A stretch of DNA of 8,095 nt, from assembly GCA_043813875.1 (NCBI GenBank), contig JBDRKP010000074.1, positions 1 to 8,095 on the forward strand, written 5' to 3'. A program made the translations under genes and the position numbers. The notes below the pieces were generated by a model. That model saw only the letters and a program-made list of their open reading frames with translations, did no database searches and was not told the origin of the DNA. This stretch comes from an archaeon (GTDB taxonomy: Archaea; EX4484-52; B79-G9). How positions within the stretch are numbered: position 1 is the first letter of the stretch; each line of letters opens with the position of its first letter. Shown one piece after another: positions 286 to 7,913 of the stretch.

Positions 286-1383
286 TCATGACAGGACATC
301 AAACTCATACTTATTTAGCCGATCGATACCTTTACTTCCTAAAACAACAGTATCTTCAAGTCTTATGCCAAATTTCCCTTTAACGTAGATTGCAGGCTCA
401 AGTGTGAATACCATGTTCTTTTTCAGCACAAATGAGGTCTTGGATGAAAGTGTAGGATATTCATGCACTTCGAGCCCCACACCATGACCCAGGCCGTGAA
501 AGTTCGAGTAATTTGTATGTTTATGACCGTTTTTCTCTAAAAATGATTTTGCAAGAGCATCAACATCATCTGAGCTCATGCCCGGAACGATTTCGTTTTC
601 GAGCAGTTTGTGAACATCCACAAGATCTGAATATGCTTTTTTCATTTCCGGATCATTACTGAAAATAAAGGTTCTGGATATGTCAGAGTTATAGAAACTG
701 CTTTTTATGCCCATGTCTATCAATACGAGGTCCTTGAATTTTCTTGTGGTCGGAGTGCCATGGATGTATGATGAGCCTTCATCGCCTGCGACCAGTATTG
801 GGAAACTCCATTCTTTCCCGCAGCCTACTATGAGCTGTTTGATTCTTTCGGAAATCTGTTTTTCTGATTTATCCTCCAAACCTTCAGAGACAAGGTCATT
901 GAGAACCCGATCTGCCAGCAGGCATGCGTTTTTTATTTCCGTGATCTCGGCATCATCCTTTATCGCCCTTATCTGAGAAATCTCTTTGCTTATGTCGACC
1001 AGACGGCATTTCGGCAGTTTCTTTAAAAGCGCGGAATAATAATTATAATCTACATTTCCGTCAATCCCAATTGTCATCCCATGACCATTCATCTCTTTTA
1101 GGTAATCTGAGATTTTTTTAGCCTTCAGATCGACTATGTTCCGTATGTCGGTCGCGGTTTCAGCTTTGTCCTTTTCGAATGTAAAGAGCGTTTCGGCGGC
1201 TTTTGTCAGTAGAATGGATGTAGGCCAGACGTCATAGAAACCAGTAAAATAATACACGTTTGGAATCGTGCTGGACTCGGGAGTAGTTATAGAGGAAATC
1301 AGTATCGCGTCCAGCTCTTTTTCGAAAAGAACCTTTCTTAAGAGTTGCAGGCGTTTTTTGCTGTTCATTACATTCATAGTCAT
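286..1383 (-). CDS. Xaa-Pro aminopeptidase/prolidase, peptidase family M24B
   Basis: 365 aa ORF. It has a creatinase-N-like N-terminus (NVYYFTGF), the linker RAIKDDAEI, and pita-bread metal-ligand motifs LIDMG, YNSDISRT, FHGLGHGVGLEVHE, TLEPAIY and GIRLEDTV. The start could be any of Met1, Met3 or Met6. Confidence 0.95.
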   Translation of the reverse strand: MTMNVMNSKKRLQLLRKVLFEKELDAILISSITTPESSTIPNVYYFTGFYDVWPTSILLTKAAETLFTFEKDKAETATDIRNIVDLKAKKISDYLKEMNGHGMTIGIDGNVDYNYYSALLKKLPKCRLVDISKEISQIRAIKDDAEITEIKNACLLADRVLNDLVSEGLEDKSEKQISERIKQLIVGCGKEWSFPILVAGDEGSSYIHGTPTTRKFKDLVLIDMGIKSSFYNSDISRTFIFSNDPEMKKAYSDLVDVHKLLENEIVPGMSSDDVDALAKSFLEKNGHKHTNYSNFHGLGHGVGLEVHEYPTLSSKTSFVLKKNMVFTLEPAIYVKGKFGIRLEDTVVLGSKGIDRLNKYEFDVLS

Positions 1384-1496: not shown

Positions 1497-2870
1497 CTAT
1501 CCAGGGGTTGTAATTGTCGGCACAGGCATAACAGCCACGTTTATTCTCAAGCATCTCACCAGATTATCAAGCATCCTGCGGGCTTTCAGGATGTTTTTTT
1601 TGTCTTTTTTAATGTCTGAGCAGAGCAATTCATCGACACAGTAAATCAGCGGAATCTTTAGTTTCTTGCATGCGTTTTTCAGGGCAATAAAGCTTTCGGA
1701 TTCCGGCTTAAAATAAGCGAATACCTGCTCGTACTTGTGATGGGAAAGATATGTCTCAATGCGCTTCTCTGTTACTTTTATATACGTCTTTTTTATCTCG
1801 AGGGTCTCTTCCCATTCAGGCCAGTCATAGTGGGCGAACGGATACTTGGTTTCAAATTCGCGCGGGATTACGCCGGGATTCGATATCATGAGCTGGTGGA
1901 GGTTTGAGTAAAACGGCAACGCGGTCAGCCGTTTCAGCAACTCGTGATGGGTCTGTGATCTTGAGTATGGTTTGCGGTAAGAGCAGGGCAGAAAAAGAGC
2001 GTATTTCTTGATTTCCGGCTTTGTGTAAAAGCGCGCAAGATAGTCCTGCCATACATCATAGACGGGATTTTTTAGGTTGTCAATGGTGGCGCCTACAAGC
2101 GGTGGCTGGCTTTTGAAGCGAGGATAGGTTATGTAGTCTTCGAAGTAAATCTCGACTTTTTTGTTCTTGCGGTGTTTATTTACCAGTGATTCGAATCCGC
2201 GCCTGTCGATTGGGCGCCATTCGCCGTTCAGCCATAAGCTGAAGAGGGGCGCGTAGCCATATGCGAAGGTGTTGATAATCACGACGGAATCGCCATGCTG
2301 CTCTGCAAATCGGACCGAATCGGCGAGTGATTGGGATATATCGCCAATGTATGGCAGATTCGCCATGAGGTATGTTCTTACAAAAAAACCTTCTTTTTTG
2401 ATGAAGGCAACTGCGGCCAAATAATCGGATAGCTTGAATCCCTTGCATATTTTCGCGAGCACTTCATCGTCTGCAACTTCAAGACCCAGCGCAAAATGAA
2501 TCTTGAGTTTTTTGCCATTGCTGGCGTCTTTTATTACTTCCAGGTTTTTTTTGGTGATGTGGGTCGGCAGGCATTCGATCACGAGATCTTTTACGCCCAG
2601 CGCAATGCATTTTTTTATGAGATATTCCTGAAACTTCACCGGGATCTGCAATTCGTCGAGGAAGCTTCCCGAGTTTAAGTATTTCACGGTGTCGTACTGG
2701 CGGTTGAGTTTTGTATCAAGATCTTTTTTCAAGCGGTCAAAATCCGGTTTCGGGACATCCGGTTTCTTGCTGAAGCTACAGAAGATGCAGCGTCCCCAGG
2801 AACAGCGGCCTGATTCGACGACAATCACAAGTTCAGTCTTATTTGCACACATTTGTTCACACGAGTTCAT
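1497..2870 (-). CDS. RaSEA-like (TIGR01210-type) radical SAM domain fused to an ArcS-type (DUF5591) domain; putative archaeosine biosynthesis protein
   Basis: 457 aa. The N-terminal ~250 aa carry C23-SWGR-C28-IF-C31, YLNSGSFLDELQIP, IECLP, ALGLEVADD, ICKGF and LWLNGEWRP, in the order expected for RaSEA-family motifs. The C-terminal part has LFLPCSYRKPYSRSQTH (aa 295-308 match the ArcS signature PC-X3-KPY-X2-S-X2-H) and ISNPGVIPREFE..YPFAHYD. It is adjacent to tgtA. Confidence 0.85.
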   Translation of the reverse strand: MNSCEQMCANKTELVIVVESGRCSWGRCIFCSFSKKPDVPKPDFDRLKKDLDTKLNRQYDTVKYLNSGSFLDELQIPVKFQEYLIKKCIALGVKDLVIECLPTHITKKNLEVIKDASNGKKLKIHFALGLEVADDEVLAKICKGFKLSDYLAAVAFIKKEGFFVRTYLMANLPYIGDISQSLADSVRFAEQHGDSVVIINTFAYGYAPLFSLWLNGEWRPIDRRGFESLVNKHRKNKKVEIYFEDYITYPRFKSQPPLVGATIDNLKNPVYDVWQDYLARFYTKPEIKKYALFLPCSYRKPYSRSQTHHELLKRLTALPFYSNLHQLMISNPGVIPREFETKYPFAHYDWPEWEETLEIKKTYIKVTEKRIETYLSHHKYEQVFAYFKPESESFIALKNACKKLKIPLIYCVDELLCSDIKKDKKNILKARRMLDNLVRCLRINVAVMPVPTITTPG

Positions 2871-2880
2871 TAACCGAAAA

Positions 2881-3035
2881 TATAGTAAACGCCATAACTT
2901 TTTAGACTAATGGCGTTTCCATATCCTTAAAAATCTATGATTTTTAGGATCCTATGAATCGAAGATTCATAAGGATAGATTGACATCTCTTGGTTTTTGG
3001 CATAGTTTGTCCATTTATTAACGATGTCAACTATA
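2881..3035. repeat. Structured intergenic repeat (MITE-like), copy 1, with a 52-bp internal hairpin insert
   Basis: 2882-2924 matches 5913-5955 at 42/43 nt, and 3006-3035 matches 5985-6014 at 25/30 nt. The ends read TATAGT...ACTATA. Internal inverted repeats are 2887-2895/2910-2918 and 2980-2987/3023-3030. Confidence 0.8.
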
Positions 3036-3172
3036 GATATATAAATTAAAGTGTTGGGAAATATTGAATCTCTGGCCTAAAAATATATAGTGATAAGCAG
3101 AAGTCAACCCGAATTATGCTTTTCACACATAGGTTGCTCGCCGGTCGGTAAAAATAATCTTGAGAGCAACCA

Positions 3173-3180
3173 TATTTAAA
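3173..3180 (+). promoter_or_regulatory. Putative TATA box for tgtA
   Basis: TATTTAAA ends 22 nt before the tgtA ATG, a spacing typical of leaderless or short-leader archaeal transcripts. Confidence 0.35.
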
Positions 3181-3202
3181 GTTAGCTAGTGATTGTGATA
3201 TC

Positions 3203-4921
3203 ATGTTTGAAATCAGAACAAGGGATGCAGGCGGAAGAATTGGTAAGTGGAGTTTCGGCAAGAAGAAACATACGGTCAATACGCCTCAAATAGCGATTGT
3301 AATCAACCCTAATCAGCAGATCATACCTCCTATAGACCTCGAGAAGAAGTTCGGGGCAGAGCTTGTAATAACCAATGCATATATCGCAAAAAAATCAAGG
3401 TCTGCGGAAGAGATTCAAGAAAAAGGGCTACACAAGTACTTTAAATGGAAGGGACCGATCTATACTGACAGCGGTACATACCAGATGTTCTCCAAAGGGA
3501 ATGTGACGATAACACCACAAGAGACAATCGATTTCCAGAAGAAAATAGGGTCAGACATCATAACGCCGCTTGATCTTTTCACTGTGCCGCAGGATTCACG
3601 CGAGACTGCAGAAAAGAATCTTTTCGAGACGATTTCACGCATCAAGGGTGCGCGTGAAATTGTAAAAAATGAGCAGCTTGTCGGGCCTGTTCAGGGAGGA
3701 TCGTTTCCTGACCTACGCAAGAGAGCGGCTATGGAGGTATCAAAAATTGCGCCAGATATCTATGCTGTCGGAGGCATAGTACCATTGATGAACCAATACA
3801 GATTCCGGGAGCTCATGGACGTCATATTGACCGCCAAAATGAATCTCACGCCGGAAAAACCGATTCACGCGTTCGGCTGCGGGCACCCGATGATATTCTC
3901 ATTGCTTGTTGCGGTCGGCATTGATTTGTTTGACAGTGCAGCATATGCATTGTATGCCAAAGATAACAGATATATGACTGAGCGAGGCACAGAACAGGTG
4001 AGTGAACTTCACGAACTGCCTTGCGAGTGCCCGGTATGTTCAAAATACAAATCGACGGAACTTGATGAAAAGCTGCTTGCAGAGCATAATCTCTACCAGA
4101 CATTCAAAGAAATAAAAACAATCAAGCATGCAATACACGAAGGCACCTTGTGGGAGCTTGTCGAGCAGAGGATCAGGGCGCATCCGCATATGATCGAGGC
4201 ATATCGCCACATCAGGAAATATAACAAGTATCTTGAGACTGTCGAGCCGATCAGCAGAAAGAAAGCATATTTTGAGACTGGTATCGAGAGCAGGTATCGG
4301 CCGGAAGTATATCGCGTGAAGGAACGTGTAAAAGAGCTAAACGAAGATGAAACATTCGAGTGGCAAAAAATTAAAATACCGTGTGGACTGAAAAATGTCT
4401 ATCCAATCGGGCAATCATTGCTTGTAGAAGGCAAGGATACAGAAATAAAACCAGACCCGGAAACCATCGTAAAAACGACGCTCAAGTATCAATACGGCAA
4501 GGGCGCGGAGATTATGATTTCAAAAGACACACAAATAGTCCATTCTAAAAATACAGGGCGCATCAGAAGCATAACCAAAGGCAATACATTGCTCGGCACA
4601 CTGAGAGCCCATGACGGCCTGTTCATCCCAACGGCCGCAGGCGCTTCTGAACTCAGGAAGCACATAGGAAAACAGGCATACTGCGTCAAAATAACAACGG
4701 ATGCAATCCCGTTTGTGAAGGAAGGGTGCAGTGTCTTTTCAAAATTCGTGGCAGATGCGGATGAGAAGATAAGGCCCGGCGATGAAGTGTTTGTGACAGA
4801 TGACAGCGACAACCTGATAGCTACGGGAACAGCTCTCATGAACCGAAAAGAAATGTCATATTTTAAAGACGGGGTTGCTGTAAAGACAAGACACGTGAAG
4901 GAAGAATCATTGTTCACGTGA
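3203..4921 (+). CDS. tgtA: Archaeosine tRNA-guanine(15) transglycosylase (ArcTGT) with C-terminal PUA domain
   Basis: 572 aa. It starts MFEIRTRDAGGRIG and has ITNAYI, the catalytic YTDSGTYQ, PVQGG, VGGIVPLM, HAFGCGHP, DLFDSAAY, the Zn site PCECPVC...HNL and LWELVEQR. The C2 and PUA domains follow (SKNTGRIR; SVFSKFV...IRPGDEVFV...ATG...GVAVKTR). Confidence 0.96.
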   Translation: MFEIRTRDAGGRIGKWSFGKKKHTVNTPQIAIVINPNQQIIPPIDLEKKFGAELVITNAYIAKKSRSAEEIQEKGLHKYFKWKGPIYTDSGTYQMFSKGNVTITPQETIDFQKKIGSDIITPLDLFTVPQDSRETAEKNLFETISRIKGAREIVKNEQLVGPVQGGSFPDLRKRAAMEVSKIAPDIYAVGGIVPLMNQYRFRELMDVILTAKMNLTPEKPIHAFGCGHPMIFSLLVAVGIDLFDSAAYALYAKDNRYMTERGTEQVSELHELPCECPVCSKYKSTELDEKLLAEHNLYQTFKEIKTIKHAIHEGTLWELVEQRIRAHPHMIEAYRHIRKYNKYLETVEPISRKKAYFETGIESRYRPEVYRVKERVKELNEDETFEWQKIKIPCGLKNVYPIGQSLLVEGKDTEIKPDPETIVKTTLKYQYGKGAEIMISKDTQIVHSKNTGRIRSITKGNTLLGTLRAHDGLFIPTAAGASELRKHIGKQAYCVKITTDAIPFVKEGCSVFSKFVADADEKIRPGDEVFVTDDSDNLIATGTALMNRKEMSYFKDGVAVKTRHVKEESLFT

Positions 4922-5335
4922 ATCCAGAATCAAATGTTCTGCAATTATCTCTAAATCGCCTTCATATAATTTTACAGTACCTTCCAAGCACAAATGGATG
5001 CTGTTTTCGATGTATTCTTTTGAAATCAACTCGGCCTGATTATTGAAAATCACGACTTTAACCGACAAGCCATCTTTCAGATCAAAAAACAGAGTGCCTT
5101 TTGTGCTGACGTGTTTTTTATCTACAAGCCCGCAAACTTTAACATATTCGCCGACGTTGTCTTTTGTTATCTCACTTATTGGAGTGTAGGGCACAGAACT
5201 TGTCGCTTCCATGATGTATATTATAAGCAAGCCCATAAAGGACAGCATAAGACATATCTTTTTGATGACTCGTTCATCTATAGCAATTTTTTTAAGTTCA
5301 CGCAGATTCACGAAGTTTGTAAACAGCAATGTCAT
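4907..5335 (-). CDS. OB-fold nucleic-acid-binding domain protein with an N-terminal transmembrane helix
   Basis: Hydrophobic segment ICLMLSFMGLLIIYIM, followed by an OB-fold pattern: ISEIT...VGEYVKVCGLV, TLFFDLKDG, VKVVIF, CLEGTVKLYEGDLEIIAE. The start is uncertain because the ATG overlaps thpR by 38 nt. The 3' end overlaps the tgtA 3' end by 15 nt. Confidence 0.8.
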   Translation of the reverse strand: MTLLFTNFVNLRELKKIAIDERVIKKICLMLSFMGLLIIYIMEATSSVPYTPISEITKDNVGEYVKVCGLVDKKHVSTKGTLFFDLKDGLSVKVVIFNNQAELISKEYIENSIHLCLEGTVKLYEGDLEIIAEHLILDSREQ

Positions 5336-5858
5336 GATATACCGGACCTCCAGGTGAAAGTATACTTTCTTTTAGTTTTATCTCGTCAATCTCAAAATAG
5401 CCGGTCTTAAAATCCTTGTTTTTTTCTAGAATAGATAGGATAGCATGCTTATTTTTCGAATTCCTTACTCTTGCAATAGTCATATGGGCCATGAACGGTT
5501 TATCGGATTCATATATACCGTGCTTTCGAAGATTGAACTGAAGATCGTTTTGGAGTTTAGATAAGGCCCCATCATCAATAATCGCAACCCATAAAACCCT
5601 AATATAATCACTATTGGGGAATACGCCCAAATCTCCGAGGCGACATTTTGTGGGACCATGAAATCCAACTACTTTGGCTAATATGTCTTTTGTCTTTTCT
5701 ATCTTGGAGTTATCCATATCACCAAGAAATATAAGTGTGGAGTGAAGCTGTTTTGTATTAACGATATCCAGATTTTCGAATATCTTGAATTCATTCTGCA
5801 TGGCATGAATATGAGTTTTTATGTCTTTTGGAAGATCGACAGCAATAAAACAGCGCAT
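5298..5858 (-). CDS. thpR: RNA 2',3'-cyclic phosphodiesterase (2H phosphoesterase, LigT/ThpR family)
   Basis: 186 aa. It starts MRCFIAVDLP, has two HxT motifs (LHSTLIFLG, AHMTIARVR), GVFP...RVLWV and the C-terminal LKESILSPGGPVY. Confidence 0.95.
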   Translation of the reverse strand: MRCFIAVDLPKDIKTHIHAMQNEFKIFENLDIVNTKQLHSTLIFLGDMDNSKIEKTKDILAKVVGFHGPTKCRLGDLGVFPNSDYIRVLWVAIIDDGALSKLQNDLQFNLRKHGIYESDKPFMAHMTIARVRNSKNKHAILSILEKNKDFKTGYFEIDEIKLKESILSPGGPVYHDIAVYKLRESA

Positions 5859-5912
5859 ATTTCAATCAACTCACGGCAATAAGTATTTATTATTTCACAT
5901 GAATTACATATA

Positions 5913-6014
5913 ATAGTAAATGCCATAACTTTTTAGACTAATGGCGTTTCCATATAATTAATGTCTATCGGTTCATATGTCCTATTTGCCCATCTAGTAA
6001 CGACATCAACTATA
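5913..6014. repeat. Structured intergenic repeat (MITE-like), copy 2
   Basis: 102-nt direct-orientation homolog of 2882-3035 that lacks the 2925-2976 insert and keeps the same two stems. Confidence 0.8.
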
Positions 6015-6156
6015 AAGGCATCATAAAACTTATAAGGTTTCACGTCAGAAAAATCCGGCGTGAACAAAGAGCAAGGACAGAGCAGGGCATAGATTCAAGC
6101 ATTTCAAGATCATCCGCGGGCACAAGCAGGGAGTTCCAATTATCAAAAGTGATCCC

Positions 6157-7218
6157 ATGAATTCACATGAACTTAACGTATGGTACACGAAAATTGGATG
6201 GACGAAGAATCCGTTCATACTTGACATACAGCCGAGCCTGATGGTAGGCCACAAAAATGAAATTGACAGACTGTTAAAAAACATCAAGGAATCCCAGAAA
6301 TACATATTGATTCTTGGACCAACTGGTGCCGGAAAAACAACATTGTTGAAACATATTTCTGAAAAATATTCTCCGGTATACCTGCCAAAACCGCCAAAGC
6401 ACCATGATGAACTCGTAAGCATATTCAAGACCACCATCCTTAAGCCAACGATATTAGAAAAGATATTGAAAAATGAAAACATAACCATCTATAACCTCGC
6501 GGAAAAAACAAACCGAAAACATAAAGGCAAATCAATCCTCTTTCTAGTTGATGAAGCCCACGAGACAGATATCGGAGTACTTGAATGGCTAAGGACAATA
6601 ACAGACCAAATAGATGGAGCCACACTAATACTTGCAGGACTTCCCGTTTTTAAGGAGACCCACCTTGCTAAACTGGAGACATTGAAACAGAGGATCACAT
6701 TAGAAATTGAGCTTAGAACATTGAATAAAGATGAAACCATCGAACTAATAAGAAAAAGGATTGAGAGCGCAGGAGGACATAATCTTGATCCGTTCACTTA
6801 TGATACGATAAATGAGATATACAAAAAAACAGGAGGATTTCCACGAGAAGTAATAAAGCAGTGCAATCACCTGATTCATCAAGCGATTGAGCGAAACTCA
6901 CAAATAGTAGATTCAACATATTTTAAAGATAAAAATGAGATTGATACGATCATAGATGTAAAAGAGACATTGTCGACACTCACGGAAAAACAGGCAGAAA
7001 TTGTCGAGATACTTTCAAAAACAGATGGAATAACCCCCACGGAATTGCTAGGGAGGTTGAATATATCGGAATACAAGTCAAAAATGCATGCACTGAGGGC
7101 AGTAAACAACATCTTGAGGAGACTGGAAACAAGCAATATGGTGATACGTGAAAAGCGGGGGCGCGCATACAAATATATGGTCTCGGCAAAACTAAAAAAC
7201 GTGCTCATCAATGCATAA
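6157..7218 (+). CDS. AAA+ ATPase (ExeA/GspA-like) with a probable C-terminal winged-helix domain
   Basis: 353 aa. It has the N-terminal GWTKNPF, Walker A GPTGAGKT, Walker B LFLVDEAH, LILAG, LKQRI and GGFPREV. The C-terminus LTEKQAEIVEIL...ITPTEL...NNILRRLE...VIREKRGRAYKY resembles a wHTH. Confidence 0.85.
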   Translation: MNSHELNVWYTKIGWTKNPFILDIQPSLMVGHKNEIDRLLKNIKESQKYILILGPTGAGKTTLLKHISEKYSPVYLPKPPKHHDELVSIFKTTILKPTILEKILKNENITIYNLAEKTNRKHKGKSILFLVDEAHETDIGVLEWLRTITDQIDGATLILAGLPVFKETHLAKLETLKQRITLEIELRTLNKDETIELIRKRIESAGGHNLDPFTYDTINEIYKKTGGFPREVIKQCNHLIHQAIERNSQIVDSTYFKDKNEIDTIIDVKETLSTLTEKQAEIVEILSKTDGITPTELLGRLNISEYKSKMHALRAVNNILRRLETSNMVIREKRGRAYKYMVSAKLKNVLINA

Positions 7219-7232
7219 CGGGGCGAGGATAA

Positions 7233-7913
7233 ATGATTGAATTCTTCATAATTGCGTTAATTTCCATAGCCCTCCTAAATACAAAATCATTTGATATTAC
7301 GTCTATAATCCTTTCAGCAATATACGGGCTGGTGATATGGCGGCTGGAGGGATTTGAATGGTTCCTTATCCTTTTGACTTTTCTTGTGACGTCCCTTTAC
7401 GCCACGCGCTGCGGACGCGAAAATAAGGAAAAAAAGTACGAATTCCGCGGGGCAGACAATGTGTTATCAAACGGGCTTGTGCCGTTTATGAGCGCGGTTT
7501 TCGGATACCCTTATTTTTATCTCGGCAGCATCTCGGCAGCATTGTCCGATACACTGGGATCGGAAATCGGCAAGCTTTCGAAGGAGAAACCAGTGTCAAT
7601 ATTGAATCCACATAAGAAGATAGAGCCCGGAACGAATGGAGGCGTCACAAAAACAGGCACTTTCGCAACAATAATCGGGGGCACTATTATCGGAATTCTT
7701 GCGATAATATTCTATAGCAGTTTTGTAAAAAACGATGTCTCTTCATACATATTATTCTTTGCTGTTGTTGCGGGAGGTGTATTCGGTTCGGTTGTTGATA
7801 GCCTTCTTGGACTATTATTTGAAAACCGGAAGATGATGACAAACGGATCCGTGAATTTCACTGCAACATTGTGCGGAGGAATCATTACTACAATCATCGT
7901 GTTTTTTTTATGA
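7233..7913 (+). CDS. DUF92 (TMEM19/TIGR00297-type) integral membrane protein
   Basis: 226 aa with several hydrophobic helices and the family motifs RGADNVLSNG, AALSDTLGSEIG, PGTNGGVT..GT, GSVVDSLLG and NGSVNFTAT. A GAGG RBS-like sequence lies upstream, 14 nt after the ATPase stop. Confidence 0.92.
   Translation: MIEFFIIALISIALLNTKSFDITSIILSAIYGLVIWRLEGFEWFLILLTFLVTSLYATRCGRENKEKKYEFRGADNVLSNGLVPFMSAVFGYPYFYLGSISAALSDTLGSEIGKLSKEKPVSILNPHKKIEPGTNGGVTKTGTFATIIGGTIIGILAIIFYSSFVKNDVSSYILFFAVVAGGVFGSVVDSLLGLLFENRKMMTNGSVNFTATLCGGIITTIIVFFL

Follow-up and report, generated by a model that had tools for sequence, protein, structure and literature searches.

The 8,095-nt stretch of archaeal DNA considered here (the window; contig JBDRKP010000074.1 of assembly GCA_043813875.1, GTDB lineage Archaea; EX4484-52; B79-G9) encodes a protein that joins, in one polypeptide, a radical S-adenosylmethionine (SAM) domain resembling RaSEA to the catalytic C1 domain of ArcS. 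The source is a small-genome archaeon of DPANN type, a kind of archaeon in which this form of the protein is common. It represents a real, conserved and widespread minimal fusion of both enzymes that finish archaeosine (G+), often linked to tgtA, the gene for the archaeal tRNA-guanine(15) transglycosylase (ArcTGT). With a probability of roughly 70%, the fusion protein is predicted to be a natural single-chain minimal archaeosine synthase, by which G+ would be finished at tRNA position 15.

Yokogawa et al. reportedly showed in 2019 that ArcS and RaSEA form an alpha2beta2 complex and that the reaction requires SAM and anaerobic conditions. As set out in PMC11298593, ArcTGT places 7-cyano-7-deazaguanine (preQ0) at position 15, ArcS adds lysine to yield preQ0-Lys, and RaSEA, complexed with ArcS, turns preQ0-Lys into G+. 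According to the same paper, free ArcS is inactive and lysine is transferred by the ArcS-RaSEA complex only, the complex accepts preQ0 both as the nucleoside and as the nucleoside 5'-monophosphate, ArcTGT and ArcS do not co-purify, and a structure of the lysine-transfer and radical-cleavage machinery is still missing (PMC11298593). The fusion gene and its parts are arranged as follows.

1497..2870, minus strand: fusion open reading frame (ORF), 457 amino acids (aa) including the stop, a single open frame
2166..2840, minus strand: radical SAM core (aa 11-235), a RaSEA-like partial TIM barrel with alternating strands and helices from E13 to H233
2778..2804, minus strand: C23-X4-C28-X2-C31, presumed ligands of the [4Fe-4S]/SAM cluster, invariant in 111 of 111 family members
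2646..2672, minus strand: S67-G68-S69-F70-x-D72-x-x-Q75 block, common to RaSEA except at position 75
2106..2165, minus strand: junction (aa 236-255) with a short strand, E239-242; canonical RaSEA continues here into a four-Cys tail
1533..2105, minus strand: ArcS C1/DUF5591 domain (aa 256-446), from Pfam, the ArcS models, the 2q07 match and an Atlas superposition
1947..1988, minus strand: ArcS signature PC-X3-KPY-X2-S-X2-H (aa 295-308)
1806..1877, minus strand: PGVIPREFE..YPF.HYDWPEWEE block (aa 332-355), matching AF0587

The initial annotation of this DNA had described one uninterrupted 457-aa ORF at 1497..2870, and this frame was confirmed on the minus strand. The probable start codon is M7 (nt 2852), which gives a protein of 451 aa, because the database copy of the protein (P0001, 100% identical) has 451 aa and homologues begin near M7. 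The RaSEA-like radical SAM character assigned to the N-terminal half also stood: Pfam places Radical_SAM (PF04055) at aa 22-175 (E 6e-11), and among the radical SAM models of NCBIfam that of RaSEA, TIGR01210, fits best (82 bits, aa 13-220, profile positions 15-229 of 313), with the runner-up family, TIGR01212 (MnmL/YtqA), reaching merely 32 bits. For the C-terminal half, Pfam places DUF5591 (PF17884) at aa 274-412 (E 9e-21), and two ArcS models match, namely NF053620, the top NCBIfam model for the protein (83.7 bits, aa 242-399), and NF040592 (78.5 bits, aa 250-414). The hidden Markov model (HMM) check with TIGR01210 and DUF5591 that had been suggested for the two halves therefore returned a match on each, that of TIGR01210 below its cut-off. 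The exact ArcS signature (defined in PMC10516641 and PMC5699537) reads P295-C-SYR-KPY-SR-S-QT-H308 from the ORF coordinates, just where it had been located at nt 1947-1988. The second block that had been pointed out, PGVIPREFE..YP..HYD, is likewise present; it corresponds to PGVIPREFETKYPFAHYDWPEWEE (aa 332-355, nt 1806-1877) and aligns with AF0587. The fused architecture proposed by the initial annotation is thus supported in each part that could be checked, and, judged by its sequence, the protein is more reduced than had been described, having neither the TGT-like, C2 and PUA domains of ArcS nor the four-Cys tail of RaSEA.

Both halves are conserved across a large family. In a first protein search with 8000 scored candidates, 145 homologues had E<=1e-3; among the 120 homologues listed, 106 carry both Pfam domains, 13 carry DUF5591 only and 1 carries Radical_SAM only. 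The fusion homologues are mostly 420-510 aa long and 39-70% identical to the window protein. The window protein and 110 homologues were aligned (n=111), leaving out the self-match P0001 together with nine rows that are short or partial (P0007, P0029, P0032, P0058, P0105, P0107, P0109, P0114 and P0119). C23, C28, C31, C296, K300, P301, Y302, S305 and 21 further positions are invariant (111/111), P295 and H308 are at least 90% conserved, and G333, P336, P344, Y348, W350, E352 and E355 are invariant in the same alignment. TIGR01210 and both ArcS models match all 111 members, TIGR01210 being the best radical SAM model throughout (best E-value 2.8e-42), while the weaker models TIGR01212 and Elp3 match 105 and 95 of the 111, respectively, with much poorer best E-values. 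Because the active-site residues are invariant in 111/111 and all of the former models match, purifying selection acts on both halves across deep divergence. The agreement goes far past what chance would give, and an assembly or gene-calling artefact was excluded by the conservation of both halves over this divergence.

The survey of the architecture that the initial annotation had called for showed the fusion to be a large family and not a singular case. A scan in which each of 185,579 species was represented by one genome matched 265 stretches. Relatives are encoded in 171 of these, and no fewer than 171 species genomes carry the fusion. The 80 best loci were retained; they all come from metagenome-assembled genomes (MAGs), mostly labelled DPANN or Altiarchaeota. 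In addition, two ESM Atlas clusters, with 75 and 93 members, have the fusion architecture; the commonest known phyla in them are Thermoproteota and Altarchaeota, which is to be taken as a lead only.

The genomic context links the fusion to the preceding step of the pathway.

3203..4921, plus strand: tgtA, archaeal tRNA-guanine(15) transglycosylase (ArcTGT), divergent from the fusion gene

The TgtA of the window scores 502 bits against TIGR00432 (cut-off 350) and contains the Pfam domains TGT, TGT_C2 and PUA; its zinc ligands C274, C276, C279 and H295 are invariant in 32 aligned orthologues. When the window proteins were searched by tblastn against the loci, 63 of which (of 80) have at least 2100 bp of upstream sequence, tgtA was found within the flank in 35 of 80. 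It stands head-to-head with the fusion gene, with start codons within 1000 bp, in 18 loci (2-32 bp apart in 11), and in L032 the two start codons overlap. In the remaining 16 tgtA-bearing loci, the two genes are on opposite strands, and tgtA is 1.2-9 kb upstream. The linkage still holds where the identity of the fusion protein has fallen to ~40%. In 14 loci without an adjacent tgtA, the 56 flanking proteins are heterogeneous housekeeping genes, with KsgA upstream in 3; no PUA partner, queC/D/E, ArcS or RaSEA is found among these 56 proteins. An HMM of the C-terminal half, run over the window and the 80 loci (1.23 Mb, a small part of each genome), found exactly one ORF per source, the fusion itself (81/81), and an HMM of canonical RaSEA over the same 1.23 Mb found the fusions and one weak radical SAM gene in L050 (31 bits).

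The C-terminal half corresponds to the C1 domain of ArcS alone, or approximately positions 258-415 of the 575-position profile. C1 holds the catalytic core and the motif of ArcS and is encoded alone in phages and some archaea (PMC10516641). AF0587 of Archaeoglobus fulgidus (2q07) is the sole solved structure that matches this half (E 1.7e-9 in sequence), with both the signature and aa 332-355 aligned; it differs from the fusion in being a 306-residue chain, deposited as of unknown function, whose part beyond C1 is unmatched in the fusion. The model that the Atlas gives for aa 256-446 can be superposed on stand-alone DUF5591 proteins of 210 aa with template modelling (TM) scores of 0.88 by query and 0.85 by target, and on clusters of archaeosine synthase subunit alpha (with PUA, TGT_C2 or TGT) with TM by query of 0.74-0.80. 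These superpositions indicate that the C-terminal helices to ~aa 446 belong to the C1 fold.

A structure model of the whole protein had been proposed and was built with AlphaFold2 from the 111-sequence alignment; it places both halves in one compact body. The mean predicted local distance difference test (pLDDT) is 94.9 and the predicted TM score (pTM) 0.91, with only aa 1-7 below a pLDDT of 50. The fusion protein is hence modelled, with confidence, as a single body and not as two beads on a string. The top Foldseek matches of the model in the PDB are Elp3 radical SAM domains (8pty_C, E 2.5e-10); the model also matches AF0587 2q07 (E 9.6e-7, 156 columns) and, at 20% identity, queuine lyase 6p78 (TM by target 0.69). 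By sequence, the N-terminal half matches 6p78 over aa 11-139 (E 8.8e-9) and Elp3 weakly in the PDB. No ArcS-RaSEA complex, and no radical SAM partner of AF0587, is among the PDB sequence or fold matches.

The N-terminal half was also compared exhaustively, with aa 1-255 run by HMMER against 1.84 billion representatives, which gave 468 proteins at E<=1e-3, of which 75 reach E<=1e-10 and 14 reach E<=1e-30. The best matches are members of the fusion family, followed by stand-alone proteins of ~290-400 aa. NCBIfam scans of 85 of the 150 matches listed returned TIGR01210 as the best radical SAM model in 85/85, and 55 of the 85 exceed its 212-bit cut-off and are thus canonical RaSEA. A clustering of this half with an unrelated radical SAM family, which the initial annotation had named as a way for its reading to fail, was not seen: the nearest relatives outside the fusion family are RaSEA.

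Taken together with the known pathway, these observations would assign the fusion protein to the last two steps of archaeosine formation. First, the neighbouring TgtA would insert preQ0 at G15 of tRNA. Second, the C1 domain would use C296 and the KPY-S-H motif of ArcS to add an amino acid, by homology lysine, to the preQ0 nitrile to give preQ0-Lys. Third, the RaSEA-type domain, with a [4Fe-4S] cluster on C23/C28/C31, would cleave SAM reductively, and the lysine carbon skeleton would be removed by radical C-N scission, leaving the archaeosine formamidine. The substrate, the lysine donor and the product are proposed by analogy with the two-subunit system. In such an enzyme, the covalent fusion would replace the docking of ArcS and RaSEA that the separate subunits need.

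Several observations weigh against this prediction. First, the fused radical SAM halves form a clade of their own, apart from canonical RaSEA. A quick search with IQ-TREE over 298 columns gave an unrooted tree for 118 radical SAM domains, with six long end branches. In this tree, the window protein, 43 other fusion N-terminal halves and P0131, P0135, P0204 and P0134 fall on one side with a Shimodaira-Hasegawa-like approximate likelihood ratio test (SH-aLRT) value of 99, a kind of branch support that, by the caveat attached to the quick search, deserves less trust where rows are long. All 51 canonical RaSEA fall on the opposite side, and the stand-alone proteins P0137 and P0140 adjoin the fusion group. 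Within that group, P0131 is a fusion too by Pfam. We read the fusion lineage as probably of one origin and a sister clade of RaSEA, with the unrooted tree leaving the direction, fusion or fission, unset. As a separate observation, P0134 (544 aa) has ~315 N-terminal residues without a Pfam or NCBIfam match, followed by a fusion-clade radical SAM domain, and DUF5591 is undetected in it.

Second, residues differ between the two sets. A comparison of 51 canonical RaSEA with 44 fusion N-terminal halves showed that the Cys triad, W25, K63, S67-G68-S69-F70, D72, E99, G129-L130-E131, K143, Y167 and P173 are conserved in both. In contrast, position 75 is Gln in 44/44 fusions and Glu in 51/51 RaSEA, and residues that are invariant or nearly so in RaSEA are replaced in the fusions at positions 171 (N for K), 200 (N for P) and 218 (W for Y). 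Given the swaps to Q75, N171, N200 and W218, the chemistry or the amine donor could differ. The spacing of the cluster motif differs as well: CX4CX2C is fixed in 44/44 fusions, whereas RaSEA mostly has CX7-10CX2C (in the 51 canonical sequences, the first gap is X4 in 8, X7 in 26, X8 in 5, X9 in 8, X10 in 2 and longer in 2).

Third, the fusions are without a module of canonical RaSEA. After the barrel, canonical RaSEA has a tail of the form R-G-x-H-N-C-X2-C ... C-X-C ... W, and its four Cys are all kept in 45 of the 51 sequences (for example, P0143, P0148 and P0156); the HNC-X2-C...C-X-C module is found in 0 of 44 fusion N-terminal halves. Across the 111 full-length sequences, the only Cys column at or above 30% between C31 and C296 is C88, at 75%. 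When the alignments are compared, the segments specific to canonical RaSEA fall after window aa 236 and aa 255, and in seven other fusions the TIGR01210 match ends by profile position 258 of 313. Because the match ends early, DUF5591 occupies the place of the four-Cys tail of RaSEA. This tail, of which no mention was found in the literature searched, may be a zinc site, a second cluster or an ArcS docking element, and the covalent link would presumably make it redundant. Since the fused halves form a sister clade, score below the cut-off and lack the four-Cys module, it is only by inference from sequence that their chemistry is taken to be identical to that of RaSEA.

Fourth, the scores fail all of the curated equivalog cut-offs: 82 bits versus 212 (212.15) for TIGR01210, 78.5 versus 440 for NF040592 and 83.7 versus 600 for NF053620. 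Seven fusion members that were scanned individually score 87.6-116 bits against TIGR01210, all under its cut-off. With all three cut-offs missed and the further ArcS domains and the RaSEA tail missing, the fusion is most appropriately classed as a minimal fused variant in its own right, an equivalog of neither ArcS nor RaSEA.

These differences underlie the leading alternative, in which the same architecture would carry out another chemistry, using a non-lysine amine donor or ending at another 7-deazaguanine derivative, with the radical SAM half a separate lineage whose substrate pocket is altered. The distinct clade, the invariant Glu-to-Gln change at position 75, the K-to-N, P-to-N and Y-to-W changes relative to 51 canonical RaSEA, the lost tail and the TIGR01210 score under the cut-off all speak for this alternative. 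Yet the ArcS signature is complete and does not vary in the family, the fusions retain most of the residues conserved in the RaSEA core, the linked tgtA is ordinary, and no other modification gene recurs among the 56 neighbouring proteins of the 14 loci without adjacent tgtA, so that a change of chemistry is unlikely.

The remaining points against a single-chain archaeosine synthase concern how it would meet its substrate and whether its two activities belong together. By Pfam, TGT, TGT_C2 and PUA are all found in the neighbouring TgtA and none of them in the 457-aa protein, such that the fusion contains no tRNA-binding domain. Because the ArcS-RaSEA of T. kodakarensis accepts the preQ0 nucleoside, the TGT-like N-terminal, C2 and PUA domains may be dispensable, with recognition essentially of the preQ0 nucleotide. 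Further, a phage ArcS2 consisting of C1 only gave some dG+, the deoxy form of G+, in E. coli without RaSEA (PMC10516641), and C1 domains are therefore not always coupled to a radical SAM step. It should also be noted that the view is that of an 8-kb window, and canonical ArcS or RaSEA, QueF-like or GAT-QueC may be encoded elsewhere in the genome.

The missing TGT-like, C2 and PUA domains also fit a substrate other than tRNA, namely DNA or a free 7-deazaguanine base or nucleoside, as in phage ArcS2 with DpdA or in QueL. The N-terminal half matches the queuine lyase 6p78 in sequence (E 8.8e-9) and in fold, and C1-only ArcS2 works in a DNA pathway (PMC10516641). The linked transglycosylase, however, is a tRNA-type TgtA with PUA that scores above the TgtA cut-off and is not DpdA, the RaSEA model fits far above the similarity to QueL (82 versus ~38 bits), and the neighbours are housekeeping and not phage or defence genes, which together make such a substrate very improbable. 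There is equally little to recommend the idea that only one half is catalytic, with the radical SAM half a scaffold that activates C1 and the amidine completed by another route: aerobically purified ArcS and apo-RaSEA of T. kodakarensis are active in lysine transfer while free ArcS is inactive (PMC11298593), and the fusion has no RaSEA C-terminal module, but the Cys triad and SAM-motif-like residues are invariant in 111/111 over 39-70% identity, which is unexpected for a scaffold.

Within the prediction of a single-chain archaeosine synthase, it is tempting to see the fusion as an older or alternative stand-alone archaeosine module without an RNA-binding domain of its own, which would find its target by docking on TgtA-tRNA (a hand-over) or via the preQ0 nucleotide alone; this view is speculative and, on balance, doubtful. 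If the preQ0 nucleotide alone were recognised, the enzyme could amidinate preQ0 at any site where a transglycosylase had inserted it, including sites in DNA and in other RNAs, and in light of the invariant Q75 in place of Glu the donor might be one other than lysine.

The closest known systems each share part of this layout. ArcS (NF040592/NF053620), the lysine transferase of Euryarchaeota, resembles the fusion in C1/DUF5591, the full motif and the PREFE..YP..YD block, and differs in having N-terminal TGT-like, C2 and PUA domains and in the model scores (78-84 bits for the fusion versus the 440 and 600 required). RaSEA (TIGR01210), the beta subunit, is alike in being the best radical SAM model for 111/111 members and in sharing the Cys triad and most core residues; the differences are the separate clade, Gln at position 75, the missing four-Cys module and the fixed CX4CX2C. 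C1-only DUF5591 proteins (ArcS2 of phages and viruses, and archaeal proteins of ~200-210 aa) have the size and fold of the C-terminal half, whereas C1 of the fusion shares its chain with a radical SAM domain and has a tRNA-type tgtA as a linked gene. QueL (6p78) is likewise a radical SAM enzyme of small size whose target is the side chain of a 7-deazaguanine, but it is a bacterial salvage enzyme without C1, and the RaSEA model fits the fusion much better.

A further protein, P0159 (497 aa), also holds both enzymes in one frame, but in the reverse order, with a partial DUF5591 C1, C2 (TGT_C2) and PUA followed by RaSEA (202 bits). Its RaSEA part nests inside canonical RaSEA as the sister of P0171 (SH-aLRT 100), and on this ground P0159 would be an independent fusion event, which suggests that ArcS and RaSEA were fused more than once and, as such, speaks for the single-chain prediction. 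As a single fragmentary record, P0159 may have arisen either by a fusion of its own or when neighbouring genes were called as one by read-through. Among proteins of 801-2285 aa, 0 of 5470 candidates scored, which argues weakly against larger fusions, for example with TgtA. One longer member, P0133 (635 aa), is a fusion with ~270 extra residues between the radical SAM match (aa 2-154) and DUF5591 (aa 431-608).

In databases, members of the family are named "DUF5591 domain-containing protein", "radical SAM protein" or "hypothetical protein", and among JGI (Joint Genome Institute) names are "archaeosine synthase alpha-subunit" and "radical SAM enzyme (TIGR01210 family)". The architecture is therefore already in public data and partly auto-annotated, but has not been singled out. 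No description of it was found in the literature searched, although it may figure in Yokogawa 2019 or in Phillips 2010 or 2012. PMC11298593 makes no mention of fused enzymes or DPANN, and the available portions of PMC10516641, PMC5699537, PMC8204110, PMC6884629, PMC7694415 and bioRxiv 2025.02.15.638363 contain no description of the fusion.

If the protein is active as predicted, the minimal catalytic unit for the last two archaeosine steps would be C1 plus the radical SAM core, and the three tRNA-binding domains of ArcS and the four-Cys tail of RaSEA would be dispensable. The archaeosine step would also be assigned for much of the small-genome archaea, whose copies of the gene are at present called "DUF5591" or "radical SAM protein". 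In addition, the fusion offers a one-chain target of ~450 residues for the structure and mechanism of the lysine-transfer and radical-cleavage machine. As a Rosetta-stone confirmation of the ArcS-RaSEA partnership it is useful; because that partnership has already been proven biochemically, the fusion confirms it and overturns nothing.

The labels of the 80 loci are spread over Aenigmatarchaeota (11), Nanohalarchaeota (6), a Methanobacteriota-type group (6), Microcaldota, that is, Micrarchaeota (5), Nanobdellota (4), Parvarchaeota (3), Woesearchaeota (2), Iainarchaeota (2) and Bathyarchaeota (1), with 40 loci having no phylum label, many of them listed as "Nanobdellati archaeon", "Altiarchaeota" or plain "archaeon". 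The nearest of the 80 (L008, L002 and L001, at 68, 67 and 64% identity) are all labelled Nanohalarchaeota. One MAG labelled Methanosarcinales has two fusion copies on separate short contigs (L006 and L022, 63% and 45% identity), and L006 also bears an M24 peptidase like that of the window (74% identity). This suggests that the MAG is a mixed bin with DPANN contigs. With two different copies in one MAG, the non-DPANN labels of a few loci, which besides this MAG include L003 (Bathyarchaeota), L057 and L080, are not to be taken as the range of the family.

The fusion gene and tgtA belong to a block that is partly kept. In the window (286-1383 and 3203-7913), the order is an M24 Xaa-Pro peptidase and the fusion gene and, divergently, tgtA, a small OB-fold protein, a ThpR/LigT 2',3'-cyclic phosphodiesterase, an AAA ATPase that has a winged helix at its C-terminus, and the membrane protein DUF92. 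Of the 80 loci, 29 have the M24 peptidase, 22 ThpR, 21 the AAA protein with its winged helix, 14 the OB-fold protein and 7 DUF92. The block was seen in L002-L015, L024, L044, L067, L074 and others, which are DPANN-type MAGs, and three of its genes are RNA-related (tgtA, the fusion gene and thpR). The AAA protein is up to 73% identical across loci, and its best model is TIGR03015 (78 bits versus a cut-off of 324). In four loci labelled Nanohaloarchaea (L012, L013, L015 and L024), tgtA does not abut the fusion gene and lies 2.4-3.2 kb from it, and TgtA is ~60 residues longer (628 aa, against 572 aa in the window for an equal span of the query), so that it probably contains an insertion.

The window contains no tRNA genes or Rfam families in its 8 kb; it does contain a repeated hairpin-rich element between the fusion gene and tgtA.

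2853..3202, no strand assigned: divergent spacer between the fusion gene and tgtA, 350 bp, with the repeated hairpin-rich element at 2873-3044

The element has no Rfam match and no further copy in the other 78 loci. It looks like an insertion, because the starts of the fusion gene and tgtA lie 2-32 bp apart or overlap in 12 related loci. A second copy in the window (5908-6026, 94% identity over 49 nt) lies between thpR and the AAA gene, and the element is also found directly upstream of the fusion gene in L001 (4654-4826) and L008 (3094-3255). It could be a repeat resembling a miniature inverted-repeat transposable element (MITE), a small RNA or a set of regulatory hairpins. The segment 2880-3035 folds far better than its shuffles (z of -6.0 and -6.8 for the plus and minus strands, respectively), and in an 8-bp stem, 4 pairs are maintained through two-sided changes among 4 copies.

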